Positions 2,809 through 24,586 of a stretch of DNA of 25,202 nucleotides are shown here, piece by piece. The stretch is from Bacillota bacterium (GTDB lineage: Bacteria; Bacillota; Clostridia; Lachnospirales; Anaerotignaceae). Numbering within the stretch: the first letter of the stretch is position 1; the number at the start of each line of letters is the position of its first letter. Under the pieces are notes generated by a model. It worked only from the letters and a program-made list of their open reading frames with translations, was not told the DNA's origin and searched no databases. Where the stretch lies: positions 1-25,202 of the forward strand of contig JAFYQL010000173.1 of assembly GCA_017547125.1 (NCBI GenBank), given 5' to 3'. A program made the translations under genes and the position numbers.

Positions 2809-4652
2809 TACAGTCAGCAAATGATAATGCAAAGGTAATGGAGCAGCTGTCAGTATCCGATTTACTCCCACAGTTAGAAGAAGCATTACGTGCAAAAAGT
2901 AAGCTTTCAGATTTAAAAGTGGAGATTATCTGCGTTGTTCCTCCTGATGAAGAACAGCTTGAAAAAATAAAAGCTTTTATAAAGAAAAAATATGAAACAG
3001 ACAATTTTGAAGTTGTTGTCAAGGAAGACAAGAGCCTTGTCGGCGGCTTTGTAATCCGTATTGGCAACGAAGAATATGACTGGAGTATGAAGGGCAGACT
3101 TCAGAAAATTCAGCAGAACATGGTTGACAGAGCCCAGACAAAAAATGCTGAAGAAACTGAAGGAATTATCTCAATACTTAAAACAGAAATTGAAGAATCT
3201 GTTTTTGATACAAGCAAAAAAGAAGTTGGTTTTGTTACATACGTTGGTGACGGTATTGCTACAATCCAGGGTATTGAACACGCAATGTACGGCGAAATCA
3301 TCATCTTTGATACAGGCGTAAGAGGCATGGTACAGGATATCAGAAGAAACGAAATTGGTGTTATCCTTTTTGGCCGTGACGCAGGCATCAAAGAAGGCAC
3401 AAGAGTTATCAGAACAGAAAAAATGGCAGGTGTGCCTGTAGGCGAAGAATTCCTTGGAAGAGTTGTTAATGCACTTGGTGACCCTATTGACGGCAAGGGT
3501 GCAGTTACAGCTTTTGGTTACAGACCTATCGAAAACAGAGCCCCTGGTATTATTGACAGAAAAGCAGTTACTGTTCCTATGGAAACAGGTATTATAGCCA
3601 TTGACTCAATGTTCCCTATCGGCCGAGGCCAGAGAGAACTTATCATTGGTAACCGTCAGACAGGTAAAACAAGTATCGCTATGGAAGCTATCTTAAACCA
3701 GAAGGGCAAAGGCGTAATCTGTGTTTATGTAGCTATTGGTCAGAAAGCATCAAGTGTTGCAAAACAGGTTCGTATGCTTGAAGAAAACGGCGCACTTGAC
3801 TACACAATTGTTGTATCTGCTCTTGCAAGTGATACTGCATCACTTCAGTACATTGCTCCTTATGCAGGTACATCAATGGCAGAATACTTTATGTATCAGG
3901 GCAAGGACGTTCTTATTGTTTATGACGACCTTTCAAAGCATGCGGTTGCATACAGGGCCCTTTCACTCTTGCTTGAACGTTCTCCGGGACGTGAAGCTTA
4001 TCCTGGTGACGTATTCTACCTTCACTCAAGACTTCTTGAAAGAAGTGCAAGACTTGCTCCTGAGGCGGGCGGAGGCTCAATCACAGCCCTTCCTATTATC
4101 GAAACTCAGGCAAGTGACGTATCAGCATATATCCCTACAAACGTAATTTCTATTACAGACGGTCAGATATATCTTGAAAGCTCATTGTTCTTTGCAGGCC
4201 AGAGACCTGCTGTAAACGTAGGTTTATCAGTATCACGAGTTGGTGGTAATGCACAGACAAAGGCAATGAAAAAAGCAGCCGGAAGTATCCGTATTGACCT
4301 TGCTCAGTACAGAGAAATGGAAATTTTCACACAGTTCAGTTCTGAACTTGATGATGCAACAAAAGAACAGTTGGTTTATGGCCAGGGCCTTATGGAATTA
4401 TTAAAACAGCCTTTGGCAAGACCACTTTCACTTGCTGAACAGGTAATTACACTTTGCGCAGCAAACAAGAAATTGTTCCTTGATGTTCCAAAGAACAAAA
4501 TCAAACCTTTCCAGATGTATATGCTGGAATATGTTAAAGAAAACTATAGCGAAATCATTCGTGAACTGCAGGAAGAAAAGGTTCTTACAGAAGACCTTAC
4601 AGAAAATATCATCAAAGCAGTTGAGGATGCAAAGAAATGTTATCTGAAATAA
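2805..4652 (+). CDS. atpA: F0F1 ATP synthase subunit alpha with N-terminally fused delta (OSCP) C-terminal domain
   Basis: aa ~37-104 match the delta CTD (EDKSLVGGFVIRIGNEEYDWSMKGRL). From aa ~117 it is alpha (VGDGIA, PIGRGQRELIIG, PGREAYPGDVFYLHSRLLER). GTG overlaps the atpF stop (GTGA); one uninterrupted 615 aa frame. Confidence 0.93.
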   Translation: MIQSANDNAKVMEQLSVSDLLPQLEEALRAKSKLSDLKVEIICVVPPDEEQLEKIKAFIKKKYETDNFEVVVKEDKSLVGGFVIRIGNEEYDWSMKGRLQKIQQNMVDRAQTKNAEETEGIISILKTEIEESVFDTSKKEVGFVTYVGDGIATIQGIEHAMYGEIIIFDTGVRGMVQDIRRNEIGVILFGRDAGIKEGTRVIRTEKMAGVPVGEEFLGRVVNALGDPIDGKGAVTAFGYRPIENRAPGIIDRKAVTVPMETGIIAIDSMFPIGRGQRELIIGNRQTGKTSIAMEAILNQKGKGVICVYVAIGQKASSVAKQVRMLEENGALDYTIVVSALASDTASLQYIAPYAGTSMAEYFMYQGKDVLIVYDDLSKHAVAYRALSLLLERSPGREAYPGDVFYLHSRLLERSARLAPEAGGGSITALPIIETQASDVSAYIPTNVISITDGQIYLESSLFFAGQRPAVNVGLSVSRVGGNAQTKAMKKAAGSIRIDLAQYREMEIFTQFSSELDDATKEQLVYGQGLMELLKQPLARPLSLAEQVITLCAANKKLFLDVPKNKIKPFQMYMLEYVKENYSEIIRELQEEKVLTEDLTENIIKAVEDAKKCYLK

Positions 4653-8300: not shown

Positions 8301-8387
8301 TTACATAAAAAGTAAGTTATATACTAGCGAAAAGAAAATATGGTAATTTTGTAACTTTTCAACTGACTTTTTTGGATACTATGCGCA

Positions 8388-8416
8388 TTGAAGAAAAACG
8401 CACAATATACTATAAT
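8388..8416 (+). promoter_or_regulatory. Sigma-A promoter of PFOR-1
   Basis: TTGAAG (8388-8393)-N17-TATAAT (8411-8416). Confidence 0.8.
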
Positions 8417-8461
8417 ATTATTCTGGGTGAAATAGAAATAAACAATAAAGGAGAATGTAAT

Positions 8462-11400
8462 ATGTCTAAAATTATGAAAACAATGGACGGTAACGAAGCA
8501 GCTGCATACGCATCCTACGCGTTTACAGAAGTTGCTGGTATTTTCCCAATTACACCATCATCACCAATGGCTGAAAAGACAGATGATTGGGCCGCAAACG
8601 GCAAAAAGAACATCTTTGGACAGCCTGTAAAAGTTATTGAAATGCAGTCAGAAGCAGGTGCTGCAGGTACAGTACACGGCTCACTTGCATCAGGTGCACT
8701 CACAACTACATATACAGCAAGCCAGGGTCTTCTTCTTATGATCCCTAACATGTACAAAATCGCCGGAGAACTTCTTCCAAGCGTATTCCACGTAAGTGCC
8801 AGAGCACTTGCATCACACGCTCTTTCAATCTTCGGTGACCACAGTGACGTTATGGCTTGCCGTCAGACAGGTTTTGCACTTCTTGCATCAGCATCTGTTC
8901 AGGAAGTTATGGACCTTGGTGCAGTAGCACACTTAAGCACAATCAAAGGCAGAGTTCCTTTCCTTCATTTCTTCGATGGTTTCAGAACATCACACGAAAT
9001 TCAGAAAATCGAATGCCTTGACTTCGATGATCTTGCAAATATGGTAGATATGGATGCAGTTAACTCATTCAAGAGAAATGCGCTTAACCCAGAACACCCT
9101 GTTCTCAGAGGTTCAGCTCAGAACCCTGACATCTTCTTCCAGGCAAGAGAAAGCTGCAACAGATACTACGAAGATATCGTAGGTGTTTGCGAAGACTACA
9201 TGAAACAGATGAGCGCCCTCACAGGCAGAGACTATCAGCTTTTCAACTACTATGGTGCACCAGATGCTGAAAGAGTAGTTGTTGCTATGGGTTCAGTTTG
9301 TGAAGCTCTTGAAGAAACAATTGATTACCTTTGCGCTAAAGGTGAAAAAGTTGGTATGGTTAAAGTTCACCTTTACAGACCATTCTCAGCTAAACACCTT
9401 ATTAACGCAATTCCTGAAACATGCCAGAAGATTGCAGTTCTCGACAGAACAAAAGAACCTGGCGCACTTGGCGAACCACTTTACCAGGATGTATGTACAG
9501 CTATGTTTGAAGCTAAAGTACAGCCTATGGTAATCGGCGGCCGTTATGGTCTTGGTTCAAAAGACGTAACACCAGCACAGCTTATCGCTGTTTACGAAAA
9601 CCTTAAAGCAGACAAGCCTCTTAACCACTTCACAATCGGTATCGTTGACGACGTTACAAAGCTTTCACTCGAAGTTGGCAAAGAAGTTAATGTTACAGAA
9701 GGTGACGGCACAATCAGCTGCAAGTTCTGGGGTCTTGGCTCAGACGGTACAGTAGGTGCTAACAAAAACTCAATCAAAATCATCGGTGACCACACAGATA
9801 TGTATGCTCAGGCTTACTTCGCTTATGACTCAAAGAAATCAGGCGGTGTAACAATGAGTAACCTTCGTTTTGGTAAAAAACCAATCCGTTCAACATACGT
9901 TGTTAAAACAGCAAACTTTGTTGCTTGTCACAAACAGGAATATGTTAACCTTTATGACATGCATTCAGAACTTCTTCCAGGCGGTACATTCCTTCTTAAC
10001 ACAGAATGGACAGCAGAAGAACTTGATGCTAAACTTCCTGCAGCAATGAAGAAATACTTTGCAGAAAACGACATTAAGTTATACATCATCAACGGTACTC
10101 AGATTGCTAAAGAAATTGGTCTTGGCAACAGAGTTAACTCAGTACTTCAGGCTGCATTCTTCAAGCTTACAGGTATCATTCCTATTGAAGAAGCTGTTGG
10201 CTACATGAAGGCTGCTATCAAGAAGAGCTACGGCAAGAAGGGTGACACAATCCTTAACATGAACTATGCTGCTGTTGACCAGGGTGTTGACAAGGCTGTT
10301 CAGGTTGAAATTCCTGCTGCTTGGGCAAATGCTGAAGATACAGCAGTTGCTGAAGAAAGAGAAGTTCCTGAATTTGTTAAGGCAGTAGTTCAGCCTATGA
10401 ATGCTCAGAAGGGTGACTTACTTCCTGTTAGTGCATTTGCCGGCAGAGAAGATGGTACATTCCCAGCAGGTACAGCTGCTTACGAAAAGAGAGGCGTTGC
10501 TGTTGACCTTCCTGAATGGGATGTTACAAAGTGTATTCAGTGTAACCAGTGTGCATATGTATGTCCACACGCTGCTATCAGACCATTCCTTCTTACAGAA
10601 GAAGAAGTTGTAGCAGCTCCAGAAAGCTTTGCAACAAAGAAAGCAATCGGCAAAGGTCTTGAAGCATACCAGTACAGAATGCAGGTATCAGCTTTAGACT
10701 GTCTTGGTTGCGGCAGCTGTGCAGTAGTATGTCCATCAAAAGAAAAAGCACTTGTTATGAAACCAGCAGCTACACAGGAAAACGAAGCAGCTAACTGGGA
10801 TTATGCAATGACACTTTCAGTTAAAGAAAATGTTATGGCTAAAGACAGCGTTAAGGGCAGCCAGTTTGTACAGCCACTTCTTGAATTCTCAGGCGCATGT
10901 GCAGGCTGTGGCGAAACACCATACGCTAAACTTATCACTCAGCTTTTCGGTGACAGAATGTATGTTGCAAATGCTACAGGTTGTTCATCAATCTGGGGCG
11001 GCAGCGCACCTTCAACACCATATACAGTAAACCACAAGGGTCACGGTCCGGCTTGGGCTAACTCACTTTTCGAAGACAACGCAGAATACGGCTTTGGTAT
11101 GGCTATGGGCGTTAAGAAAATGAGAGAAGACCTTAAGGTTAGACTTGAAGAACTTAAAGAAATCCAGGGCTGCAGCATGATGGCTGAAACAGTTGACGCT
11201 TGGATTGACACAATGAAAGACGGTGAAGCTAATAAGTCTGCTACTGCTGACCTTATTACACTTCTTGAAAACTATAACGGCGAAAACGCAGAAGCAAAAG
11301 CAATCGTTGACTATGTTCTTGAAAACAAAGACCAGCTTGCTAAGAAGAGCCAGTGGATCTTTGGCGGTGACGGTTGGGCATATGACATCGGTTACGGCGG

Positions 11401-11995
11401 TCTTGACCACGTACTTGCTTCAGGCGAAGACGTAAACGTATTTGTATTTGACACAGAAGTTTACTCAAATACAGGCGGTCAGGCTTCTAAGGCTACACCA
11501 GCAGGTGCAGTTGCTCAGTTCGCAGCAAGCGGCAAGAGAATCAAGAAGAAAGACCTTGGTATGATGGCTATGAGTTATGGTTATGTATACGTAGCACAGG
11601 TTGCTATGGGCGCTAACCCAGCACAGCTTGTTAAGGCTCTTATCGAAGCTGAAAAATATGATGGTCCATCACTTGTTATCGCTTACGCTCCATGTATCAA
11701 CCACGGTATCAGAGGCGGTATGAGCGGTGCTCAGACAGAAATTAAGAGAGCTGTTGAAGCAGGTTACTGGCATATGTACAGATTCAACCCAGACCTCAAG
11801 AAGGAAGGTAAGAATCCATTTACACTTGACTCAACTCCAGAACCACAGGGCAACTTCCAGGAATTCATCAGAAGCGAAGTTCGTTATACATCACTTATGA
11901 GAACATTCCCAGAAATCGCTGAAGAACTCTTTGCTAAAGCAGAAGAAAATGCTAAAGACAGACTTGAAAGCTACAAGAAACTTGCAGCTCAGTAA
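8462..11995 (+). CDS. nifJ: Pyruvate:ferredoxin (flavodoxin) oxidoreductase, single-chain, housekeeping copy (PFOR-1)
   Basis: MDGNEAAA, PITPSS, two CxxCxxCxxxCP motifs, CAGCGE, GCSSIWGG, GDGWAYDIG, EVYSNTGGQ. True start is ATG 8462 with AAGGAG SD; the track start lies upstream of the promoter. Confidence 0.96.
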   Translation: MSKIMKTMDGNEAAAYASYAFTEVAGIFPITPSSPMAEKTDDWAANGKKNIFGQPVKVIEMQSEAGAAGTVHGSLASGALTTTYTASQGLLLMIPNMYKIAGELLPSVFHVSARALASHALSIFGDHSDVMACRQTGFALLASASVQEVMDLGAVAHLSTIKGRVPFLHFFDGFRTSHEIQKIECLDFDDLANMVDMDAVNSFKRNALNPEHPVLRGSAQNPDIFFQARESCNRYYEDIVGVCEDYMKQMSALTGRDYQLFNYYGAPDAERVVVAMGSVCEALEETIDYLCAKGEKVGMVKVHLYRPFSAKHLINAIPETCQKIAVLDRTKEPGALGEPLYQDVCTAMFEAKVQPMVIGGRYGLGSKDVTPAQLIAVYENLKADKPLNHFTIGIVDDVTKLSLEVGKEVNVTEGDGTISCKFWGLGSDGTVGANKNSIKIIGDHTDMYAQAYFAYDSKKSGGVTMSNLRFGKKPIRSTYVVKTANFVACHKQEYVNLYDMHSELLPGGTFLLNTEWTAEELDAKLPAAMKKYFAENDIKLYIINGTQIAKEIGLGNRVNSVLQAAFFKLTGIIPIEEAVGYMKAAIKKSYGKKGDTILNMNYAAVDQGVDKAVQVEIPAAWANAEDTAVAEEREVPEFVKAVVQPMNAQKGDLLPVSAFAGREDGTFPAGTAAYEKRGVAVDLPEWDVTKCIQCNQCAYVCPHAAIRPFLLTEEEVVAAPESFATKKAIGKGLEAYQYRMQVSALDCLGCGSCAVVCPSKEKALVMKPAATQENEAANWDYAMTLSVKENVMAKDSVKGSQFVQPLLEFSGACAGCGETPYAKLITQLFGDRMYVANATGCSSIWGGSAPSTPYTVNHKGHGPAWANSLFEDNAEYGFGMAMGVKKMREDLKVRLEELKEIQGCSMMAETVDAWIDTMKDGEANKSATADLITLLENYNGENAEAKAIVDYVLENKDQLAKKSQWIFGGDGWAYDIGYGGLDHVLASGEDVNVFVFDTEVYSNTGGQASKATPAGAVAQFAASGKRIKKKDLGMMAMSYGYVYVAQVAMGANPAQLVKALIEAEKYDGPSLVIAYAPCINHGIRGGMSGAQTEIKRAVEAGYWHMYRFNPDLKKEGKNPFTLDSTPEPQGNFQEFIRSEVRYTSLMRTFPEIAEELFAKAEENAKDRLESYKKLAAQ

Positions 11996-13070: not shown

Positions 13071-13745
13071 CTAAGTGAGAAAGGCTTCTTTCAGTTTGGA
13101 AAGGGCCTTTTTTTCGATTCTGGAAACATAAGAGCGGGATATTTTGAGTTTTTTGGCAATTTCCCGTTGAGTAAGCTCGTCGCTTTTTCCAAGGCCGTAG
13201 CGAAGGGTGATTATTTCTTTTTCGCGTTGGGTAAGGCAGTTTTCAATGGCTGAATAAAGCTTTTTGGAATAGATGTTGAGCTCGGCGGTTTCGTCAATGG
13301 TGGTTCCATTTTCAGTTATGGTGTCAAGCAGAGTTATTTCGTTTCCATCTTTATCGGCTGAAAATGGCTCCTGAAGATAAAGCTCAGTTGAAAATCGCTT
13401 TTGCCACCTCAGATACATCAGTATTTCGTTTTCTATGCATTTTGCGGCATAGGTGGCAAGGCGTGCGTTTTTGTGCTCGTCAAAGGAATTTATGGCTTTT
13501 ATGAGTCCTATAGTGCCTATGGATATAAGGTCTTCGGAATCGGCTGATGATGGAAATTTTTTTGCAATGTGTGCACAAAGACGCAGATTGTGTTCTATAA
13601 GTTTGTTGACGGCATCGGCGTCGCCTTTCTTTTTTCTTTCCAGAAGTTCTTTTTCTTCTTTTGCGCTTAAGGCAGGTGGAAATGATGAGGCAGTAAGAAA
13701 AAACACTAAACAAAGTGGAAAAACAATACCCAAAGCATACCTCAT
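13071..13745 (-). CDS. sigK: RNA polymerase sporulation sigma factor SigK (pro-form, uninterrupted)
   Basis: HNLRL, EDLISIGTIGLIKAI, LATYAAKCIENEILM, DKDGNEITLLD and QREIAKKLKISRSYVSRIEKKAL (SigK-type region 4). Start uncertain: TTG 13754, ATG 13745 or TTG 13733 (5 nt after GAGGT). Confidence 0.9.
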   Translation of the reverse strand: MRYALGIVFPLCLVFFLTASSFPPALSAKEEKELLERKKKGDADAVNKLIEHNLRLCAHIAKKFPSSADSEDLISIGTIGLIKAINSFDEHKNARLATYAAKCIENEILMYLRWQKRFSTELYLQEPFSADKDGNEITLLDTITENGTTIDETAELNIYSKKLYSAIENCLTQREKEIITLRYGLGKSDELTQREIAKKLKISRSYVSRIEKKALSKLKEAFLT

Positions 13746-13763
13746 TAAAAGCAAAAGTTAATT

Positions 13764-13803: not shown

Positions 13804-13836
13804 AAAAAGAGACACGGAAATTTTCCGTATCTCTTT
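13804..13836 (-). terminator. Intrinsic terminator of the T-box operon
   Basis: Minus strand AAAGAGATACGGAA-aat-TTCCGTGTCTCTTTTT; one pair is a U-G wobble only on the minus strand. Confidence 0.85.
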
Positions 13837-13850
13837 GTTTTTGAGGAGAA

Positions 13851-16800
13851 TTATAATTCTTCCATATGTTTATATTTTTCGTATCTTGTGCCTGAGTCTT
13901 CTTTTGCAGCCTTGAAAAGAGTTTCTGCATATTCAGGGAAAGTACGTTTTAATGCAGAGTATCTTGTTTCGCCGTCAAGGAATTCTTCGTAGTCCATAGT
14001 TGGCTTTTTGCTATCCACTGTAAGTGGTTTTTCTGCATTAGGGTTGTAGCGGTAAAGTGTCCAGTAGCCTGAATCGACTGCACGTTTCATTTCGTTCTGT
14101 ACGTTGCTCATGCCAGCTTTGATGCCGTGTGTTACACAAGGTGTGTATGCAACGATAACAGATGGGCCTTTGTGCTGTTCAGCCTCGTGAAGAGCCTTGA
14201 TAAGCTGATTTGGGTCTGCACCCATAGCAACCTGTGCCACATATACATTTCCGTATGTCTGGAAAATGGCGCCAAGCTCTTTCTTACGGCTTCTCTTGCC
14301 GGCTGAAGCAAACTGTGCTACTGCGCCGAGAGGAGTTGCCTTTGAGCTCTGTCCGCCTGTATTTGAGTAAACTTCAGTATCTACAACAAATACGTTGATG
14401 TCTTCGCCGGATGCAACTACGTGGTCAAGACCGCCAAAGCCGATGTCATATGCCCAGCCGTCGCCGCCGAACATCCAGAAGCATTTTTTGGCAAGCTGAT
14501 CTTTTCTTTCAAGTATCTTTTTTGCAAGAGGAGAAGCTACTGCTTCAAGCTCAGCAATAAGTTCATCTGTTGCCTGACGTGAAGCATCAAAGTTGTCAAA
14601 TGCATCAAGCCAGAGTTTAGCAGCTTCACTGCCGGTTTCAGCCATATATTCTTCTACAAGGGCTTTCTGTGCAAGTCTCTGCTGTTTTACTGAAAGGAAC
14701 ATACCAAGTTCAAGCTCGGCATTGTTTTCGAAAAGTGAGTTTGTCCATGCAGGGCCAAAGCCACGTTTGTTTGTTGTGTAAGGAATGCCAGGCATTGGTG
14801 AGCCCCAGGCCTGTGAACAACCTGTTGCGTTTGCCCAGTAAACTCTGTCGCCAAAAAGCTGAGTAAGAAGCTTGGCATATGGTGTTTCGCCGCAGCCTGC
14901 ACAAGCAGCACTGAACTCAATAAGAGGCTGGCGGAACTGGCTGCCTTTGATGCTATATACATTGAAAAGGTCGCCTTTGTCAGAAATTGTGAGACCATAG
15001 TTCCAAAGCTTCTTGCTTTCTTCTGTAAGGTTGGCATCTTCCATAGTGATTGCATTTTCCTTTGCAGGGCAGCAAGCTACACAGCTGCCGCAACCTGTAC
15101 AGTCAAAGCTTGAAATCTGCATTGTAAAGTGAAGTCCTTTGGCTGCAGCACCCATAGCAGGAACTGTTTCAAAGCCTTCAGGAGCATTTGCTTTTTCTTC
15201 GTCGTTTAAGAGATATGGACGGATAACTGCGTGCGGACAAACGAGAGCACACTTGTTGCACTGGATACATTTTGAAGCATCCCATACAGGAACTTTGAGT
15301 GCGATACCACGTTTTTCAAATGCAGTAAGACCCATATCAATACGTCCGTCTTCATAGTTTTTGAATGCACTTACAGGAAGGTCATCGCCTTTCTGTCTGT
15401 TGATAGGCTGAAGAAGGTTTTTAACAACGTCAGGAAGATTGTTGTCAGCAGCAGCTTCACCGCTTTCAGCCTGTGCCCATGAAGAAGGAACATTAACCTT
15501 AACAAGCTCTGTAGCGCCTGCATCAATTGCCGCAACGTTTCTTGCAATAACGTCATCGCCTTTTGCGAAGTATGTTTTGCGGGTAGCATCTTTAATCATT
15601 CCAAGAGCGTCTTCAGTAGGAATAACCTGCATGAGAGCAAAGAATGATGCCTGAAGTACTGTGTTTGTGTGACTGCCAAGGCCTAAATCCTGAGCAATCT
15701 TGTTTGCATCTATCATGTAGAACTGAATGTTCTTTTCTGCAATCTGTTTTCTTACCTTCGCAGGAATATGGTCTTCAAGTTCGCTTTCTTTCCAGCTGCA
15801 GTTAAGAAGGAATGTTCCGCCTTCAACTATTTCGTCAATGATATCATACTGTGTTATGTAACTCTGGTTGTGGCATGCAACAAAGTCAGCCTGTTTTACA
15901 TAGTATGAGCTTGTGATTGGCTTGTCGCTGAAACGAAGGTGTGATTTTGTAACACCAAATGATTTTTTGGCATCATATTCAAAATAAGCCTGAGCAAATT
16001 TGTCTGTGTTGTCGTTGATGATACGAACTGTGTTGTGGTTTGCACCAACAGTGCCGTCACCGCCAAGACCCCAGAATTTGCATCTTACAAGGCCGTTTGT
16101 ATTTTCTGTATAAGGCTTTAATGGTAATGAAAGATGAGTAACGTCATCGTTGATACCGATAGTAAAGCTTCGGATTGGGTTTGGAGAAGCAAGGTTTTCA
16201 AATACAGCCGCAATCTGTGATGGGTCTGTATCCTTTGAACTTAAACCGTAGCGTCCGCCGATAACCTTGATCTGACGGTCGTTATTCATAAGTACAGAGC
16301 AGATATCTTCAAATAATGGTTCGCCTGCGCTGCCCATAGCCTTGCATCTGTCAAGAACGGCAATTCTTTCAACAGTTTCAGGAAGAGCCTGAAGGAAATG
16401 CTTTGCAGAGAAAGGTCTGTATAAGTGTACCTGAAGGAAGCCAACCTTTTTGCCTTCGTTAACAAGTTTTTCTGTAACATCACAGATAACACCGCTGGCT
16501 GAACCCATAGCGATAACCACATCAGTTGCATCAGGTGCACCATAGTAGTTGAATGTATGGTATTCACGGCCTGTGATTTTTGAAATTTCTCCAAGATATT
16601 TTTCAACGATATCAGGAAGGTTGTTGTAGAATGTGTTGTTTGCTTCTCTAACCTGGAAGTACACGTCACCGTTCTGAACAGTGTTACGAAGTGTAGGGTG
16701 TTCAGGGTTGAGTGAGCCGTCACGGAATGCTTTTAAAGCATCTTTGTCGATGAGGCTGCCAACTTTATCAAGGTCAGGAAGCTCAATTTTGTTGATTTCG

Positions 16801-17333
16801 TGGCTTGTTCTAAAACCATCAAAGAAGTGCATGAAAGGAATGCGTCCTTCGATAGCACTTAAGTGAGCAACAGGAGCAAGGTCTGCAACTTCCTGTACGC
16901 TGCCTGATGAAATCATAGCAAAGCCTGTCTGACGGCATGCCATAACGTCACTGTGGTCGCCGAAAATACTCATAGCGTGTGTACCAACTGTACGTGATGC
17001 CACATGAAGAACAGCAGGAAGTCTTTCCCCTGCAATTCTGTAAAGCACAGGGACCATAAGCATAAGTCCCTGTGAAGATGTATAAGATGTTGCAAGTGAG
17101 CCAGCCTGAAGAGCACCGTGCACTGCTGTGATAGCGCCTGCTTCAGACTGCATTTCTGTTAATGTTACTGTCTGGCCGAATACATTTGTTCTGCCTTTGG
17201 CTGACCATGCGTCTGTAAGGCCTGCCATAGGAGATGATGGTGTGATTGGGTAAATAGCAGCTACTTCTGTAAATGGATATGCCATATATGCAGCAGCTTC
17301 GTTACCGTCCATTGTTACATATTTTTTGGACAT
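13851..17333 (-). CDS. nifJ: Second single-chain 2-oxoacid:ferredoxin oxidoreductase (NifJ/PFOR family, PFOR-2), substrate possibly not pyruvate
   Basis: All cofactor motifs present (YPITPSS, CIQCNKC..CP, CTGCGSC..CP, CAGCGE, GDGWAYDIG, EVYSNTGGQ). ATG 17333 is 6 nt after GAGGTG. Confidence 0.93.
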   Translation of the reverse strand: MSKKYVTMDGNEAAAYMAYPFTEVAAIYPITPSSPMAGLTDAWSAKGRTNVFGQTVTLTEMQSEAGAITAVHGALQAGSLATSYTSSQGLMLMVPVLYRIAGERLPAVLHVASRTVGTHAMSIFGDHSDVMACRQTGFAMISSGSVQEVADLAPVAHLSAIEGRIPFMHFFDGFRTSHEINKIELPDLDKVGSLIDKDALKAFRDGSLNPEHPTLRNTVQNGDVYFQVREANNTFYNNLPDIVEKYLGEISKITGREYHTFNYYGAPDATDVVIAMGSASGVICDVTEKLVNEGKKVGFLQVHLYRPFSAKHFLQALPETVERIAVLDRCKAMGSAGEPLFEDICSVLMNNDRQIKVIGGRYGLSSKDTDPSQIAAVFENLASPNPIRSFTIGINDDVTHLSLPLKPYTENTNGLVRCKFWGLGGDGTVGANHNTVRIINDNTDKFAQAYFEYDAKKSFGVTKSHLRFSDKPITSSYYVKQADFVACHNQSYITQYDIIDEIVEGGTFLLNCSWKESELEDHIPAKVRKQIAEKNIQFYMIDANKIAQDLGLGSHTNTVLQASFFALMQVIPTEDALGMIKDATRKTYFAKGDDVIARNVAAIDAGATELVKVNVPSSWAQAESGEAAADNNLPDVVKNLLQPINRQKGDDLPVSAFKNYEDGRIDMGLTAFEKRGIALKVPVWDASKCIQCNKCALVCPHAVIRPYLLNDEEKANAPEGFETVPAMGAAAKGLHFTMQISSFDCTGCGSCVACCPAKENAITMEDANLTEESKKLWNYGLTISDKGDLFNVYSIKGSQFRQPLIEFSAACAGCGETPYAKLLTQLFGDRVYWANATGCSQAWGSPMPGIPYTTNKRGFGPAWTNSLFENNAELELGMFLSVKQQRLAQKALVEEYMAETGSEAAKLWLDAFDNFDASRQATDELIAELEAVASPLAKKILERKDQLAKKCFWMFGGDGWAYDIGFGGLDHVVASGEDINVFVVDTEVYSNTGGQSSKATPLGAVAQFASAGKRSRKKELGAIFQTYGNVYVAQVAMGADPNQLIKALHEAEQHKGPSVIVAYTPCVTHGIKAGMSNVQNEMKRAVDSGYWTLYRYNPNAEKPLTVDSKKPTMDYEEFLDGETRYSALKRTFPEYAETLFKAAKEDSGTRYEKYKHMEEL

Positions 17334-17350: not shown

Positions 17351-19867
17351 TTAGTTGTTGCTTTTTGCTGTGTCAATACCTGCAGCGCCGACTAAACCAA
17401 GCTTGTTGGCATATTCTTCGCGCATCTTATATTTTAACACTTTTCCAGCTGCATTCATAGGGAATGAGTCGACAAAGTCAATGTATTTAGGAACTTTATG
17501 TCTTGCCATGCTTGCGGCGATGTAGTCGTGCATTTCTTCAACTGTCATGCTGCAGCCTTCCTTAAGGATAACGCAGGCCATAGCTTCTTCGCCGTAGCGC
17601 TTGTCAGGAACACCGATAACCTGTACGTCACGTACTGATGGGTGTGTATAGATAAATTCTTCAATTTCTTTTGGATAAATGTTTTCGCCGCCGCGGATAA
17701 TCATATCTTTAAGACGACCTGTGATACGGAATGTACCGTCAGCTTCTCTGCAGGCAAGGTCGCCTGAGTGGAGCCATCCGTCTGCGTCGATAGTGTCACG
17801 GGTTGCTTCAGGCATCTTGTAGTAGCCTTTCATAATGTTGTAACCGCGTGAGCAGAATTCGCCGTTTACGCCGTCAGGAACAACTTCGCCTGTTTCTGGG
17901 TCAATAACCTTACATTCAACGTGTGGGAAGTTATAGCCAACAGTGTTTGTACGAAGATCAAGAGGATCTTCCCAAGCTGACATTGTGCTGCCCGGAGATG
18001 ATTCTGTTTGGCCGTAAACACTTACGATACCTGTCATATTCATTTCGTTAGGGTCTGCAGCACGTCTCATAAGGTCAGGAGGACAGCCGGCGCCGGCCAT
18101 AATACCTGTACGCATGTATGAGAAGTTAGTCTTTCTGTAGTCTTCGTGGTTGAACATAGCTATGAACATAGTAGGCACACCGTTGAAGCAAGTGATTCTT
18201 TCCTGATTGATGCAGGCAAGTGATGATTTTGCTGAGAAGTATGGAAGCGGACAAACTGTTGCACCGTGTGTGAGAGATGCAGTCATTGAAAGTACCATAC
18301 CGAAGCAGTGGAACATAGGAACCTGAATCATCATACGGTCTGCAGTTGAAAGTCCCATTCTGTCACCGATACATTTACCGTTGTTAACTACGTTGTAGTG
18401 TGTAAGCATAACGCCTTTAGGGAAACCTGTTGTACCTGATGTGTACTGCATATTACAAACATCGTCAGGTCTTACCTTTGCTGCCATTCTGTTAAGTTCT
18501 TCAGGGGCAACAAGGTCTGCTCTTTCCATAGCTTCTTCAAATGTGAGGCAGCCAGGCTGCTTGAAGCCAACTGTAATTACATTACGAAGGAATGGAAGGC
18601 GTTTGCAGTGAAGAGGCTTGCCAGGTTTGCTTGTGGCAATTTCAGGACAAAGCTCATTGATAATCTGTTTGTAGTTTGAGTCAAGACAAGACTCAATCAT
18701 AATAAGTGTATGAGTATCTGACTGGCGGAAAAGGTAGTCAGCTTCGTGAATCTTGTATGCTGTGTTTACAGTAACAAGTACGGCACCGATTTTTGTTGTT
18801 GCCCAGAAAGCAATATACCATGCAGGTACGTTTGTTGCCCAAACTGATACCTTATTGCCTGCTTTTACGCCAAGAGAGATAAGTGCTCTTGCAAAGTTAT
18901 CAACGTCTTCACGGAATTCTTCGTATGTACGTACATAGTCAAGTGTTGTGTACTTGAATGCATACTGGTCAGGGAATTCTTCAACCATACGGTCAAGAAC
19001 CTGTGAGAATGTGAGGTTGATAAGTTCGTCTTTTTTCCAAACATACTGGCCTGTGCCGTCGTGGTTAGGATAAAGAACTTTCTTTTTGCCGCGTGTCTTT
19101 TCGAAACGGCTCATATAGTTTACAAAGTGAGGGAAAATAACTTCGTATTCAGGAAGGTCTTCCATCCACTCAATTTTCCATTCAAGAGAAATATAACCGT
19201 CATAGTCGATTGATGAAAGCGCTCTCATCATATCATCGATAGGAAGAGTACCTTCGCCTATAAGGTTGTATGTGTCTTTGTCGTCTGAGTCACGGAAATG
19301 AACGTGTTTTACATAAGCACCAAGGTTTTTGATAGTTGCATCTGCGCTTTCGTTAAAGTCGCGATATGGGTGGTGAATATCCCATAATGCAGCAAGCTGG
19401 TCGCATGCAAAGCTGTCCATAAGTGAACGGAGACGTGATGTGTCAGCATAAATACCGCTTGTTTTTACAAGAATTGTTACGTCTGCATCTTCTGCATCGT
19501 CAAGAAGCTCAGCTATTCTTTCGCGAACGAGGTCTTCGTTTTCGTGAAGAGCAACAACTGTAACGTATGGAACCTGCATCTGTTTTGCAGTCTGAATAAG
19601 TTCTTTGATGGCAGGAACAAAGTTTTCTTCGTTTGAAGAAAGGTCACAGGATGTATCGAAACAAGGAATAGCAAGTTTCTTTTCTCTGAGCTGACGAGAT
19701 GTTGATGCCATATTATATTTGTGGAAAGGGCCACTGCGTTCTGTTAATTCAGGGAATTTTGGAAGGTTATAAACTTCTATGCCGGCAAAATCCATTGTTT
19801 CGCCAATTTCAAGATATTCATCCCAGTTTAAATGAGCCCAGCCTCTGGTTGAAAATGAAAGTTTCAT
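17351..19867 (-). CDS. AMP-forming acyl-CoA synthetase with N-terminal xylose-isomerase-like TIM-barrel domain
   Basis: C-terminal ~560 aa: YTSGTTGFPKG, PMFHCFG, YGQTE, GWLHSGDL, RLKDMIIRGGENIYP, AGKVLK. N-terminal ~255 aa: FAGIEV, WDIHH, KHVHFRD, GEGTLP, YDGYISLEW. Confidence 0.9.
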   Translation of the reverse strand: MKLSFSTRGWAHLNWDEYLEIGETMDFAGIEVYNLPKFPELTERSGPFHKYNMASTSRQLREKKLAIPCFDTSCDLSSNEENFVPAIKELIQTAKQMQVPYVTVVALHENEDLVRERIAELLDDAEDADVTILVKTSGIYADTSRLRSLMDSFACDQLAALWDIHHPYRDFNESADATIKNLGAYVKHVHFRDSDDKDTYNLIGEGTLPIDDMMRALSSIDYDGYISLEWKIEWMEDLPEYEVIFPHFVNYMSRFEKTRGKKKVLYPNHDGTGQYVWKKDELINLTFSQVLDRMVEEFPDQYAFKYTTLDYVRTYEEFREDVDNFARALISLGVKAGNKVSVWATNVPAWYIAFWATTKIGAVLVTVNTAYKIHEADYLFRQSDTHTLIMIESCLDSNYKQIINELCPEIATSKPGKPLHCKRLPFLRNVITVGFKQPGCLTFEEAMERADLVAPEELNRMAAKVRPDDVCNMQYTSGTTGFPKGVMLTHYNVVNNGKCIGDRMGLSTADRMMIQVPMFHCFGMVLSMTASLTHGATVCPLPYFSAKSSLACINQERITCFNGVPTMFIAMFNHEDYRKTNFSYMRTGIMAGAGCPPDLMRRAADPNEMNMTGIVSVYGQTESSPGSTMSAWEDPLDLRTNTVGYNFPHVECKVIDPETGEVVPDGVNGEFCSRGYNIMKGYYKMPEATRDTIDADGWLHSGDLACREADGTFRITGRLKDMIIRGGENIYPKEIEEFIYTHPSVRDVQVIGVPDKRYGEEAMACVILKEGCSMTVEEMHDYIAASMARHKVPKYIDFVDSFPMNAAGKVLKYKMREEYANKLGLVGAAGIDTAKSNN

Positions 19868-21279
19868 TATACCTCAGCCTCCTCGTAAGTAATCTTATTA
19901 AGTGCGTTGATGTAAGCCTGAATACTTGAGCCTACGATGTCAGTTGATGTACCACGGCCTGAGTAAAGTTTGCCATTGGAACGAAGTTTAACTACAGTTT
20001 CGCCCATAGCTTCGCGGCCTTCTGTTACGGAACGAATCTGGAAATCATCAAGTTCATAATGGCAGCCAAGAATGTTTTCGATAGCAAGGAATGCTGAGTC
20101 GATAGGACCGTCGCCAAGTGCAACGCCTTCAAGCATCTGACCATGTTTTTCAAGCTTCATATGAGCCATTGATGATGATGTGTTGCTTGCTGTGATGTTG
20201 TAGCTGTGAAGAACGTATGTTGAAGGAACCTGCATAGCTGCTGAAGCAACGATTGTATCAAGTTCTCTTGTTGTGATAACGTCTTTTCTTGCGGCGATTT
20301 TCTGGAATGCATCCCAAACCTGTGCGCCGTCTTCTTCGCTTAAGTCATAGCCAAGTTTTTCAACTGATTTAAGTACAGTTGACATATTGTCGTGGCTTGT
20401 AAGTGACATATCTTCTGTAATTTCCTGAACACCATTGTCGAATGGTGAGTTTTTGCTTCTTCTTGTTTCGCACATCCATGAAATCTGTTTGATGATGCGG
20501 TTCATTTCAACTGTGCGTACGCTGCAGTTAACTCCGAATGAGTCGCCTTTTGCAGCAAGAAGACGTGAAACGTGAGGAAGTGATACAGTGTTTATTTGAT
20601 ATGCAGCAGCTTTAATTTCTTTTACGCCGTGTTTGATAGCAGCAACTGCACAGGCATCAGCCATAGCAAGTTCGTTTGAACATGAAAGGCCAAGCACTGC
20701 ATCTTTAAGCTCATCAACATTTGCATAAAGTTCATCAATAAATTCGCCAAGTTCGTCAGGAAGCATAGCACCTGTTGCATCGCATACAGTTACTGTTTTT
20801 GCACCTGCATTGATAGCTGATTTGATAACTTGATATAAAAATGCCTTGTCGCTTCTTGTTGCGTCATCTGCAATAAATTCTACGTCGCTTGTTTTTGCGC
20901 AGCAGGCAGCAATTGTATTTTCAATAGCCTTAAGCATAGCTTCAGGCTTTTTGTTGAAAAGGTATTCCATCTGAACTGGGCTTACAGAAGCACGTACCTG
21001 AAGACGAGGATGTTTAGCCTCTTTAAGTGCATTCCAAGTGATGTCGATGCTTTCTTCAGCAAGCTGAACAGGTACTGCTACGATACTGTTTTTTACTGTT
21101 GAAGCAACTGATTTTATACGTAAAGAATCAATCTTAGGCTGTGTGATAGGTTCAAGCTCAATTACAGAAACGTTTAGTTTATCAAGCAGTTTAGGTATTT
21201 CAATCTTTTCTTTGAAAGAAAGAGTAAATTCTTTTCCGGTCTGTTTCATTGTAATGTCACTGATTCTGATCTGGTCCAT
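19867..21279 (-). CDS. LeuA (2-isopropylmalate synthase)-like protein, predicted catalytically inactive, with intact C-terminal regulatory domain
   Basis: LeuA-like EFIADDATRSD and VCDATGAMLP; regulatory domain GDGPIDSA, EGREAMGE, STDIVGSS. The RDGEQ, HxH and GERxGN motifs are absent. ATG 21279 after AAGAGGTG; the track start lies inside the T-box terminator. Confidence 0.85.
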   Translation of the reverse strand: MDQIRISDITMKQTGKEFTLSFKEKIEIPKLLDKLNVSVIELEPITQPKIDSLRIKSVASTVKNSIVAVPVQLAEESIDITWNALKEAKHPRLQVRASVSPVQMEYLFNKKPEAMLKAIENTIAACCAKTSDVEFIADDATRSDKAFLYQVIKSAINAGAKTVTVCDATGAMLPDELGEFIDELYANVDELKDAVLGLSCSNELAMADACAVAAIKHGVKEIKAAAYQINTVSLPHVSRLLAAKGDSFGVNCSVRTVEMNRIIKQISWMCETRRSKNSPFDNGVQEITEDMSLTSHDNMSTVLKSVEKLGYDLSEEDGAQVWDAFQKIAARKDVITTRELDTIVASAAMQVPSTYVLHSYNITASNTSSSMAHMKLEKHGQMLEGVALGDGPIDSAFLAIENILGCHYELDDFQIRSVTEGREAMGETVVKLRSNGKLYSGRGTSTDIVGSSIQAYINALNKITYEEAEV

Positions 21280-21307: not shown

Positions 21308-21340
21308 TAAAAAAATCCTTGAAGCATTATGCCTCAAGGA
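21308..21340 (-). terminator. T-box attenuator terminator
   Basis: TCCTTGAGGCA-taa-TGCTTCAAGGA-TTTTTTT, mutually exclusive with the antiterminator. Confidence 0.92.
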
Positions 21341-21590
21341 CGAACAATCAAATTCGCGGTACCACCTTGATTACAGCAGCCTTTCAGCATACTGTCTCTC
21401 TCGGACTCGTAAAAGCCCATAGCCTGTAACGGGGCGACCGTACTCCACTACCCAAATGAAAACATTCTTCGCAGAGTCGACTCAGGAGTGAGACTGCAAT
21501 CTTTCTTCCGTACCGATTTTCACCAGCCATCGGCTCTCTGAAACTTTCGTAAAGATGCATAATTCCGTTATAGTCGTTGTGTTTTTAAAA
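21308..21590 (-). promoter_or_regulatory. T-box riboswitch leader, leucine-specific (CUC specifier)
   Basis: Minus strand shows stem I with AGAGAG bulge and GCTGGTGAAA loop, specifier region CTCACTC (21492-21486), stem II, CCGTTA stem IIA/B, stem III, T-box AAGGTGGTACCGCG (21368-21355) with partner CGTCCTT, and an overlapping terminator. Confidence 0.95.
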
Positions 21591-21598
21591 TTGCATTT

Positions 21599-21628
21599 AG
21601 TATAGCACAAAAAAGGGGAAATAGTCAA
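21599..21628 (-). promoter_or_regulatory. Sigma-A promoter of the T-box operon
   Basis: TTGACT-N18-TATACT with extended -10 TGc, directly upstream of stem I. Confidence 0.8.
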
Positions 21629-21808: not shown

Positions 21809-21837
21809 ATGAAAAAAATATTTATGGAGTGATTTTG

Positions 21838-22818
21838 ATGAATAATAATAAGATTACAATAAGAACAGACCTTGCGCTTGAAAACTGCGAAATGCTGAAG
21901 GAAGAGGGGACTTTGTCAGACGGAATAAAGTGCAGAGAAGACAAGACTGATATATACAAAATAACAACCGTCGAAATACTTAATAAAACCGGAAGTGATG
22001 CATTGGGCAGACCTGAAGGACGATACGTTACAATAGAAAGCAATTATCTCAATTTTAATGATGCTACATGCCTGAGTTCAATTGCTGAAAAAACTGCAGA
22101 AATAATAGGAAGTCTTGCAGATTTTGAAACGGCAGAGAGCATACTTGCCGTTGGTCTTGGAAATTGGAATATAACTCCCGATGCATTGGGACCGAAGGTT
22201 ATAGACAAGCTTCTTGTTACAAGGCATATTATGGATACTGTGCCTGAAGAGTTAGAGGGCAATGTACGCAGTCTTTCGGCACTTTCTCCGGGGGTTATGG
22301 GTATAACGGGCATAGAAACCTTTGAAATAATAAAAGGTGTGGCAGATAAGGTAAAGCCGGACGTGATTATTGCCATAGATGCCCTTGCGGCAAGAAACAT
22401 TAGCAGGGTAAACACGACCATACAGCTTAGCGACACAGGTGTTGCTCCTGGTGCAGGTGTGGGCAACAAACGATGCGAGCTCAGTAGAAAAACACTTGGT
22501 ATACCTGTTATTGCTATAGGTGTGCCTACAGTGGTTGATGCTGCAACACTTGTTAACGACACTATGGAAAAGATACTTGGGCAGATGGCTTTTCACTCGG
22601 GAAAAGGCGGAGCAGTATATAAAATGATAGAAGAGATGAATGACGAAGATAAGTATGGGCTTATATGTGAAATGCTTGGTTCACAAGAGGCAAATATGTT
22701 TGTAACGCCAAAGGAAGTTGATCTGGTTATAGAAAGGCTTTCAGGTATAATTTCTGATGCTGTAAACATTGCTGTTCATCCCGGTTTTTCCATAGAAGAT
22801 ACAAGAAAATACAAATAA
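21838..22818 (+). CDS. gpr: GPR endopeptidase (germination protease)
   Basis: RTDLALE, VGLGNWNITPDALGP, IAIDALAAR, GVPTVV, VTPKEVD. ATG 21838 follows GGAGTGA. Confidence 0.95.
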   Translation: MNNNKITIRTDLALENCEMLKEEGTLSDGIKCREDKTDIYKITTVEILNKTGSDALGRPEGRYVTIESNYLNFNDATCLSSIAEKTAEIIGSLADFETAESILAVGLGNWNITPDALGPKVIDKLLVTRHIMDTVPEELEGNVRSLSALSPGVMGITGIETFEIIKGVADKVKPDVIIAIDALAARNISRVNTTIQLSDTGVAPGAGVGNKRCELSRKTLGIPVIAIGVPTVVDAATLVNDTMEKILGQMAFHSGKGGAVYKMIEEMNDEDKYGLICEMLGSQEANMFVTPKEVDLVIERLSGIISDAVNIAVHPGFSIEDTRKYK

Positions 22819-22991: not shown

Positions 22992-23047
22992 TAACAGGTG
23001 GGCCTATGCCCATTATGAAGTTTTATGAAAAGACAGGAGGAATAACG

Positions 23048-24586
23048 ATGACAGTAATTACTATTGCCGTTGGCATCGTTGCCCTCTTACTTGGCTTAAT
23101 AGTTGGCATTATCTATAGAAAACACATTGCCGAAGCAAAGGTCGGCGTTGCTGAAGACAGAGCTAAAAAAATAGTTGAAGATGCTGAAAAGAATGCAGAA
23201 GCAAGAAAGAAAGAAATTCTGCTTGAAGCTAAGGAAGAGAGCATTAAAACAAAGAACGAACTTGAAAGAGAAGTTAGAGAAAGAAGAAACGAACTTTCAA
23301 GAACAGAAAGAAGACTCGTTCAGAAAGAAGAAACTCTCGATAGAAAAGCTGATTCATTTGAACGCAAAGAAGAACAGATGAATAAGAAAATCGAAGAGTT
23401 AGACAAACAGAAGGAAGAAGTTGAAAAGCTTCATGAAAAGCAGCTTGAAGAACTTGAAAGAATTTCAGGCCTTACAAAAGAAGAAGCAAAGAACTACCTT
23501 CTTGGCAGCATCGAAAACGATGTTAAACACGAAGCTGCTATGATGATTAAAGAAATCGAAGGCAAAGCAAAGCTTGAAGCTGAAAAGAAATCAAGAGAAA
23601 TCGTTGCAAATGCTATTCAGAGATGTGCTGTTGACCACGTTACAGAAACAACAGTTTCAGTTGTACAGCTTCCAAACGACGAAATGAAGGGTAGAATCAT
23701 TGGTCGTGAAGGTAGAAATATCAGAGCCATTGAAACTCAGACAGGTGTTGACCTGATCATCGACGATACTCCGGAAGCGGTTATTATTTCCGGTTTCGAT
23801 CCTGTAAGAAGAGAAATTGCAAGACTTGCTCTTGAAAAGCTTATCGTTGACGGCCGTGTTCATCCATCAAGAATTGAAGAAATGGTTGAAAAGGCAAGAA
23901 AAGAAGTTGAACAGATTATCAGAGACGAAGGAGAAGCTGCTTCATTTGAAACAGGTGTAAATGGTCTTCACCCTGAAATTATCAGACTTTTAGGTAAACT
24001 TAAATACAGAACAAGCTACGGTCAGAATGTACTTAAACATTCTATCGAAGTATCACACCTTGCAGGCCTTATGGCTGCTGAGCTTGGCGTTGATGTTAAC
24101 ATTGCAAAACGTGCAGGTCTCCTTCACGATATCGGCAAGAGCATCGACCACGAAATGGAAGGCTCACACGTTTCTATCGGTGTTGGCATTCTCAAAAAAC
24201 ACAGAGAATCAGAAATCGTTATCAATGCGGTTGAAGCACATCACGGCGACGTTGAACCACAGAGCATTATTGCAGTACTTGTTCAGGCTGCTGACGCAAT
24301 TTCAGCTGCAAGACCAGGCGCAAGAAGAGAAACTCTTGAAAGCTACATAAAACGTCTCCAGAGACTTGAAGAAATCGGTGACAGCTTCAAGGGTGTTGAA
24401 AAGACATTTGCTATCCAGGCAGGTCGTGAACTCAGAATTATCGTTGTTCCTGAAGAAATCACAGATGACGGCCTTACACTTCTTGCAAGAGATATCGCTA
24501 AGAAGATTGAAGATGAACTTGAATATCCAGGTCAGATCAAAGTAAGCCTTGTAAGAGAAACAAGAGCAACAGAATACGCAAAATAA
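23048..24586 (+). CDS. rny: Ribonuclease Y
   Basis: N-terminal TM, coiled coil, KH ([11 protein letters not shown]), HD (LLHDIGK), C-terminal AIQAGRE; AGGAGG SD 7 nt before ATG 23048. Confidence 0.97.

Follow-up and report, generated by a model that had tools for sequence, protein, structure and literature searches.

Why would an acyl-CoA ligase carry at its N-terminus a sugar-isomerase-type barrel whose first metal ligand has become a lysine, and which pathway does such a protein serve? The question is raised by a gene in a 25,202-nucleotide stretch of DNA (hereafter the window) from a Bacillota bacterium of the Anaerotignaceae (contig JAFYQL010000173.1), on which an earlier note had commented from the sequence alone. 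Directly observed here were the architecture of the protein, the states of its key residues, the order of events on a tree, the regulatory signal, the linkage of the genes and the fact that most carrier genomes lack leuB. On this basis we tentatively propose that the ligase activates isovalerate for leucine salvage, and that its barrel is a metal-free adaptor or ligand pocket turned towards a catalytically dead LeuA paralogue encoded immediately upstream.

An acyl-CoA ligase fused to an isomerase-type barrel

The gene is a single unbroken open reading frame (ORF; 17351-19867, minus strand) encoding an 838-residue protein with three Pfam domains, which is divided as follows.

19103-19867, minus strand: N-terminal AP_endonuc_2 triosephosphate isomerase (TIM) barrel, xylose-isomerase-like, residues 1-255 (Pfam, 74.3 bits; AlphaFold2 (AF2) model with a predicted local distance difference test score (pLDDT) of 95.8)
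19013-19102, minus strand: inter-domain tether of about 30 residues, residues 256-285 (pLDDT below 50 at residues 257-262 in the full-length model)
17354-19012, minus strand: AMP-forming acyl-CoA ligase, residues 286-838 (Pfam; AMP-binding 17819-18994, AMP-binding_C 17441-17668)

The match to AP_endonuc_2 (PF01261) covers residues 24-233 and exceeds the family cut-off of 31.1 bits, which places the barrel in this Pfam family. In the ligase, AMP-binding (PF00501) spans residues 292-683 with 301 bits and AMP-binding_C (PF13193) residues 734-809 with 62.8 bits. The fusion that had been read from the letters is thereby confirmed. Because the same three-domain architecture, 823-841 residues long, recurs in more than 120 protein clusters (78-91% identity) and in 80 species-level genomes, it is real and no assembly artefact.

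Judged by its motifs, the ligase half is an intact ANL acyl-CoA ligase with both domains in place. The core motifs checked included A3 (TSGTTGxPKG), A5 (YGxTE), A7 (GD), A8 (GRxKD) and the A10 lysine. Of 67 full-length sequences compared, every one matches the protein of the window residue for residue in motifs A3, A4 and A5; A7, A8 and A10 are nearly invariant in the same set, and all core motifs are 85-100% conserved except for the variable flanks of A10, whose lysine, K809, is invariant in a 37-row alignment. The closest solved relatives are acyl-CoA/feruloyl-CoA synthetases (8weu/8wev, 6e-77). The likeness to the YngI/ACSF2 group suggested in the earlier note is a loose fit: PRK12583 (NF009233) is the best of 113 NCBIfam ligase models, but its 669.7 bits lie under the curated cut-off of 832.

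The barrel model is predicted to have a (beta/alpha)8 fold superposable on solved AP_endonuc_2 members. In VIA-align the best match was the Art22 isomerase (8z1i; Z 27.9, root-mean-square deviation (rmsd) 2.2 Å over 239 residues), with AsbF (3dx5), UlaE (3cqj), IolI (1i60) and MJ1311 (3wqo) tied at Z 25-27 and the superfamily overall at Z 24-28. Together with D-psicose 3-epimerase (2hk0), these solved barrels share the fold of the model at Z 25-28 and rmsd 2.2-2.8 Å over about 240 residues. Members of the superfamily score alike in both Foldseek and VIA-align, so neither assigns the barrel to a specific enzyme type, and NCBIfam and the ESM Atlas returned no named barrel subfamily (best NCBIfam model 46 bits against a cut-off of 305). 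The barrel differs from its solved relatives in its low identity to them (13-20%), in the fused acyl-CoA ligase and in the exchange of the first ligand and catalytic Glu for Lys, and no sugar-metabolism genes lie near it.

The metal site and position 135

The codons of the metal-site residues are located as follows.

19463-19465, minus strand: K135, codon AAA, at the site of the first metal-ligand Glu (alignments and model)
19379-19381, minus strand: D163, metal ligand
19298-19300, minus strand: H190, metal ligand
19181-19183, minus strand: E229, metal ligand
19292-19294, minus strand: R192, which co-varies with position 135

All motifs quoted by the earlier note are present, ILVKTSG at residues 132-138, WDIHH at 162-166, HVHFRD at 188-193, ISLEW at 226-230 and, in the ligase, PMFHCFGMVL from residue 517. 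The ligand register assumed there, with Lys where the first Glu is expected, holds as well. With phmmer, K135 aligned with the Glu of the GLEN strand end in MJ1311, and in the AF2 model K135, D163, H190 and E229 stand at or just past the C-termini of four successive strands (131-135, 158-163, 186-191 and 225-228). In an alignment of 85 relatives, drawn from a search of 1.8 billion representatives, this column reads Glu in 69, Lys in nine and Asp in two. The Glu-Asp-His-Glu (E-D-H-E) ligand set is incomplete in the window's barrel, where it reads K135-D163-H190-E229; the ketose 3-epimerase/isomerase barrels have the same Asp, His and second Glu where strands 6-8 end, and the AAA codon of K135 is one transition away from GAA.

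The change did not leave the site to drift. In a set of 67 sequences, conservation reaches 97% or more at 67 positions of the barrel, which cluster at the strand C-termini and the loops that follow, which form the active-site face: S4-W10, E31, Y33, D71, D75, T136, G138, W162-H166, R169, E173, H188-S194, G204-G206, P209, E229-K231 and W234. The outer helices are variable. No region of the barrel is better conserved than the active-site face, so the domain has been remodelled and is not decaying. The word 'degenerate', which had been applied to it, is too strong, as only one ligand has changed.

Counting charges, a Glu-type pocket holds E135 (-1), K192 (+1) and a divalent metal (+2), and a Lys-type pocket K135 (+1) and R192 (+1), so that the net charge is equal without a metal. 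The earlier suggestion that Lys takes over the charge of the metal agrees with this book-keeping, and the step itself we infer. E135K and K192R, together with a loop deletion described below, most likely cost the barrel its divalent metal. What remains would be a conserved pocket of positive charge, fit for an anion, for example a carboxylate or phosphate.

The same conserved face could also belong to a barrel that is still an enzyme. The metal might be held by D163, H190 and E229 with the extra histidines, or by a CO2-carbamylated K135 that acts as a long carboxylate, or else K135 might serve as a metal-free acid/base; the reaction would be an unrecognised enolisation or isomerisation of the ligase substrate or of the 2-oxoacid product. 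Such a barrel would account for a catalytic face that is the best-conserved region and rich in invariant His, Asp and Glu. Carbamylated lysines are known as metal ligands in other TIM barrels, namely amidohydrolases and the transcarboxylase 5S/pyruvate carboxylase CT domain, and the weak nearest models of the barrel, fructoselysine 3-epimerase, IolO and hydroxypyruvate isomerase, all act next to a carbonyl. In the solved ketose 3-epimerases, on the other hand, the replaced Glu is both a metal ligand and the catalytic base, and we consider an active barrel, though the chief alternative to our proposal, unlikely.

At the opposite extreme, the barrel could be a structural passenger that aids solubility or oligomerisation, with neither a pocket function nor a specific partner, E135K being a near-neutral change in a relaxed domain. 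Conservation is indeed lowest in the barrel: the mean frequency of the top residue is 0.72 there, 0.79 in the tether and 0.86-0.89 in the two parts of the ligase. A passenger would fit poorly with a domain that none of more than 80 species has shortened, and with conserved positions that are concentrated on the active-site face and not in the core alone. We regard this possibility as improbable.

A leucine-responsive operon with a catalytically dead LeuA

The fusion gene is the second of three genes in an operon with the following elements.

21599-21628, minus strand: promoter-like site directly in front of the T-box, TTGACT, 18 nt, TG-TATACT (consensus scan, weak evidence by itself, as shuffled sequence is expected to give as many such sites)
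21333-21580, minus strand: T-box leader, specifier read as CUC (Leu) followed by A (RF00230, 99.2 bits against a gathering score of 93, full model, positions 1-219)
21315-21341, minus strand: terminator stem of the T-box, followed by a T-run
19867-21279, minus strand: catalytically dead LeuA paralogue, HMGL-like barrel plus LeuA_dimer regulatory domain (Pfam, NCBIfam, alignment to 3ewb/3eeg)
13851-17333, minus strand: single-chain 2-oxoacid:ferredoxin oxidoreductase of the pyruvate:ferredoxin oxidoreductase (PFOR) type, third gene of the operon (TIGR02176, 1685 bits)
13806-13836, minus strand: terminator-like hairpin (14-bp stem and T-run) at the operon end

The first gene had been called a pseudo-LeuA, and comparison with solved LeuA bears this out. 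Like LeuA (3ewb, 3eeg, 3rmj), its product has a two-domain layout and a well-conserved C-terminal regulatory domain, which is the best-conserved part of the protein. Unlike LeuA, it reads MKQTG in place of RDGEQ, losing the Arg-Asp pair to Lys-Gln, and SxS in place of the metal-binding HxH, losing both His residues; every LeuA model of NCBIfam, the equivalog models included, scores below its cut-off. The upstream ATG, at 21327, overlaps with the terminator of the T-box, homologues are 465-475 residues long, and translation probably starts at M17 of the longest ORF. The start of the barrel-ligase gene overlaps the stop of dead leuA by one base (TAATG) and is preceded by a GAGGAGG Shine-Dalgarno sequence. 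The PFOR gene begins 17 nt past the barrel-ligase with GAGGTG as its Shine-Dalgarno sequence.

Related loci were scanned in one genome per species, which gave 80 loci, mostly from ruminant and human gut Clostridia metagenome-assembled genomes (MAGs). Dead LeuA lies immediately upstream of the barrel-ligase in 79 of them, and the 80th is cut by a contig end. Together with the translational coupling through TAATG, this linkage makes dead LeuA an obligate neighbour of the barrel-ligase. At one locus (L027:5543-6997) dead LeuA is split between ORFs of 283 and 178 residues, and the barrel-ligase and PFOR are intact.

By its sequence, the T-box directly upstream is a leucine T-box, scoring above the gathering score and carrying a Leu specifier. 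The register in which the specifier was read was validated on a T-box at another locus (L013), the leader of PheS, which reads UUC. T-boxes stand upstream of the dead-LeuA/barrel-ligase pair in 10 of 14 loci tested, and the specifier is CUC or CUG in all six that were read (the window and five related loci). Such control resembles that of ilv-leu operons. Wherever the role of a T-box-regulated gene is known, the specifier agrees with it (PMC2494555).

The gene content of the carriers points in the same direction. In 43 further carrier genomes leuB scored above its cut-off in three and was not found in 40, and the control gene leuS was present in 41 of the 43 (any match with E ≤ 1e-100; 40 above its own cut-off). 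In a sample of 41 relatives, leuB exceeded its curated cut-off in 30, and in the three pair-carriers of the sample, with completeness of 68, 81 and 85%, neither true leuA nor leuB was found.

In 43 of the 80 loci there are, within 7 kb, one or two further ligases of about 760 residues with an N-terminal HTH_19 plus Cupin_2 region (HTH, helix-turn-helix). These HTH-cupin-AMP ligases carry T-boxes of their own, with AUC (Ile) or GUC/GUA (Val) as specifiers, for example at the following HTH-cupin ligase/T-box sites in related loci.

L044: 2428-5246
L029: 4923-5154
L032: 9606-9847
L016: 6804-7053 and 9447-9687

Because the HTH-cupin ligases read Ile or Val and the pair reads Leu, the pair would be the leucine member of a triad of tRNA-gated ligases that activate branched acids. 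In the window's own genome, which is 68% complete, no HTH-cupin ligase was found.

These data bear on another account, in which the operon does not serve isovalerate salvage at all: the ligase would activate some other acid, or would work in the leucine-degrading direction that the analogy with YngI had suggested. Such an account would fit with the best family model of the ligase, which is generic and scores under its cut-off, with the three carrier genomes in which leuB is present, and with the four of 14 loci that have no T-box. It is opposed by the absence of leuB from 40 of the 43 carriers and by the Ile and Val T-boxes of the sister ligases. AMP-forming ligases are, moreover, effectively irreversible, which speaks against a degradative direction. 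A T-box with a Leu specifier induces on leucine shortage, the wrong logic for catabolism (the principle is given in PMC2494555). Leucine supply is what the T-box and the missing leuB indicate instead, and on these two grounds we rejected the catabolic, YngI-like reading; any function other than salvage seems to us very improbable.

History of the Glu-to-Lys change

Barrel-ligase fusions of the Glu type, 35-55% identical to the protein of the window, also exist outside a leucine context and with no LeuA-like partner: beside an acyltransferase and a radical SAM gene, beside a 2-oxoacid_dh acyltransferase, or alone. No T-box was found at these partnerless loci, and the two searchable genomes among them have both leuA and leuB. 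A split form is also known (L015:8450-13553, group G031), in which a 560-residue ligase is followed by a 269-residue Glu-type barrel, the reverse of the order in the fusion. The split pair lies between an acetyl-xylan-esterase gene and genes for a DegT-aminotransferase and NeuB, a neighbourhood that may point to an ancestral function in the modification of sugars or nonulosonates.

Two further Glu-type fusions (G005 and G022; E135, K192) are already accompanied by dead LeuA and a Leu T-box. In the tree they branch just outside the large clade that is marked by E135K, K192R and a four-residue deletion after the RDS motif. Because of this position, the partner and the riboswitch appear to have been acquired first, and E135K later. 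The same two fusions contradict the idea that the lysine was the basis of the partnership with LeuA.

K135 was kept in 77 of the 80 loci of the Lys clade. It always occurs with R192, and E135 occurs with K192 except in two nested lineages. Outside the clade Lys was found at this position only in a stand-alone barrel (P0151, 37% identical), which keeps K192; this and two other stand-alone relatives (P0197 and P0173) lie on contigs of 1-2 kb with uninformative neighbourhoods. A second ligand has also been lost in four of 77 Lys-type barrels (D163H twice, E229V/Q twice), while eight of eight Glu-type barrels keep all four. In addition, the barrel evolves at about 2.6 times the rate of the ligase when dead LeuA is present, against about 1.4 times in Glu-type fusions without a partner, a comparison based on few pairs and prone to saturation.

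This history cuts both ways for a barrel that still catalyses. Such a barrel would be in keeping with the ancestral fusions, in which the E-D-H-E site is complete and barrel and ligase were joined before LeuA arrived, and with the fact that reversion to Glu is tolerated; the loss of second ligands and the small, saturation-prone difference in rate argue against it. A mere passenger would be expected to evolve fast and to let position 135 toggle between Lys, Glu and Tyr, as it does. The retention of K135 in nearly all loci of the clade, coupled to R192, is not what a passenger would predict.

A proposed route from isovalerate to leucine

In the reading that we tentatively prefer, isovalerate activation with a metal-free barrel, uncharged tRNA-Leu would switch on the operon (T-box, dead LeuA, barrel-ligase and PFOR paralogue) in hosts without the isopropylmalate pathway. 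The ligase would make isovaleryl-CoA from isovalerate, a 2-oxoacid:ferredoxin oxidoreductase would reductively carboxylate it to 4-methyl-2-oxopentanoate (2-oxoisocaproate), and an IlvE-type aminotransferase would convert the latter to leucine. A gene for such an aminotransferase (Aminotran_4) is present in the window's genome. The carboxylation route from isovalerate to leucine in rumen bacteria is related in a passage of PMC7356843, which cites Allison et al. (1962, 1966). Isovalerate activation appears to be the likeliest task of the ligase because the T-box has a Leu specifier, leuB is missing from most carriers and this route is known.

As for the barrel, its lineage would have accompanied the ligase with a full E-D-H-E site before entering the leucine regulon, and would have been remodelled in the leucine clade by E135K, K192R and the loop deletion. 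It would no longer isomerise, and would act as a tethered adaptor or ligand pocket that links dead LeuA to the ligase. Dead LeuA would sense leucine through its conserved regulatory domain and control the ligase through the tethered barrel. The substrate of the ligase, the loss of the metal, the binding of dead LeuA and the feedback by leucine are all what we infer from the observations above. We favour a non-catalytic barrel because the path from isovalerate through isovaleryl-CoA and 2-oxoisocaproate to leucine requires no isomerisation or other extra chemistry, which also counts against an active one, and because the barrel evolves faster in the company of dead LeuA.

A bolder version, which we think rather doubtful, is that the two remodelled TIM barrels, one a LeuA without its metal and the other of the isomerase type with Lys and Arg in place of the metal, form a heteromeric allosteric module that exerts direct leucine feedback on the ligase. 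This would be the first pseudoenzyme-regulated ANL enzyme, acting at the committed step from isovalerate to leucine. More speculatively still, K135 could be carbamylated by CO2, so that the pocket would report the availability of CO2 for the carboxylation.

Two known systems resemble parts of this scheme. MbcS of Staphylococcus aureus activates exogenous branched short-chain acids to their CoA esters at the expense of ATP, and is thus a functional analogue of the proposed ligase (PMC10026030). It differs in preferring 2-methylbutyrate and isobutyrate, isovalerate being a poor substrate, and in feeding fatty-acid and not amino-acid synthesis (PMC10026030). As described in the same paper, MbcS lacks a barrel, a partner resembling LeuA and a T-box, and we liken it to the present protein by function alone (PMC10026030). 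For dead LeuA with the barrel-ligase, a model is offered by the HisZ-HisG(S) ATP phosphoribosyltransferase, in which a dead paralogue of HisRS is the allosteric subunit of the first committed enzyme (PMC10795190, PMC9437257). The families are unrelated, and binding and allostery, which are proven for HisZ, are here a proposal.

Several observations weigh against our proposal. The first group concerns the barrel itself. Its conserved, His-rich face (H165, H166, H188, H190, D193, E31 and E173) would fit a still-active site equally well. Position 135 is not fixed either: because nested lineages of the Lys clade read Glu (two lineages) or Tyr (one), residue 135 may matter less than the scheme implies. 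These lineages (loci L099 and L101 with Glu, L091 with Tyr) retain R192; they are listed, with the Lys-type locus L093, under groups G082, G083 and G078. Two of the four loci, L093 and L101, come from bins labelled Bacteroidota, and L091 from one labelled Abditibacteriota. These labels suggest that the genes left Clostridia by transfer or that the contigs were mis-binned. Finally, because Glu-type fusions and the split pair exist without a LeuA-like partner, the barrel had a role tied to the ligase itself.

The second group concerns the operon. Four of the 14 loci tested have no T-box, and three of those four (L093, L099 and L101) are from the genomes that have leuB. PFOR follows the pair on the same strand in only 11 of the 80 loci, and we rejected it as an obligate partner. 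In the window, a second full-length PFOR of the nifJ type (8372-11995, plus strand) lies within 2 kb of the operon PFOR and outside the Leu T-box operon; the operon PFOR may be a copy specialised for isovaleryl-CoA/2-oxoisocaproate.

The third group concerns contact between the parts. The full-length AF2 model has a predicted template modelling score (pTM) of 0.62, and because of this value and of the low confidence of the tether at residues 257-262 no fixed packing of barrel and ligase can be claimed from the model. Pairwise distances of the barrel and of dead LeuA co-vary beyond what the ligase explains (partial r 0.59 against 0.11, 35 taxa), but this comparison, like that of the rates, is confounded by shared ancestry and saturation, and the co-variation is suggestive only. 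A predicted complex of dead LeuA with the barrel reached an ipSAE of 0.45, in the class 'weak support', the best of three controls being 0.00; runs agreed in at least 50% of contacts, with a partner pLDDT of at least 84. In calibration, 58 of 80 solved complexes passed, as did two of 110 mismatched pairs; at ipSAE of 0.60 or below, only seven of the 80 solved complexes passed, together with both of these mismatches, counts that hold only roughly here, as custom alignments were used for the prediction. A score of 0.45 thus lies in a range where, for any guess not likely beforehand, a pass would be wrong more often than right. The earlier conjecture that the barrel is the partner of the pseudo-LeuA therefore stands as regards gene linkage, and as regards binding its prediction passes only weakly. 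For a passenger barrel the lack of confident domain packing and the weak complex score would be expected, and distances that track those of dead LeuA would not.

Other features of the window and of related loci

The operon is flanked by a neighbourhood of sporulation and housekeeping genes that is not conserved with the dead-LeuA/barrel-ligase pair.

13071-13754, minus strand: sigma-70-family factor
21829-22818, plus strand: Gpr germination protease
23006-24586, plus strand: RNase Y

Farther away, the ORF of the ATP synthase alpha subunit (2805-4652, plus strand) carries at its N-terminus the C-terminal segment of OSCP (delta) at residues 32-106, a delta-alpha fusion according to Pfam. The other AP_endonuc_2 gene of the genome, between secDF and nrdR on contig C56, was considered as a relative of the barrel and dismissed, as it is not in the barrel subfamily (BLASTP E 0.33). 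In a Faecousia MAG, the pair with its Leu T-box is preceded, at a distance of about 2 kb, by a tetrahydrofolate (THF) riboswitch (L032:3135-3232, 71.4 bits).

Significance

A search of one literature library returned no paper on this fusion, on its pairing with dead LeuA or on T-box-controlled acyl-CoA ligases, and none that assigns genes to the isovalerate-activating step or explains its control. That rumen and gut anaerobes make leucine from isovalerate and CO2 has been known since the 1960s. The protein and its dead LeuA partner offer a concrete, testable candidate for the activating step in dozens of uncultured Clostridia species in which leuB was not found. Because isoacid supplementation is practised in ruminant nutrition, gene markers for the use of isovalerate would be of practical value. 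For enzymology, the barrel provides a natural, dated swap of Glu for Lys in a metal site, with a compensating change of Lys to Arg, in a domain that is still conserved. The pair may also prove to be a new case of a dead enzyme copy that has been reused as a sensor subunit.

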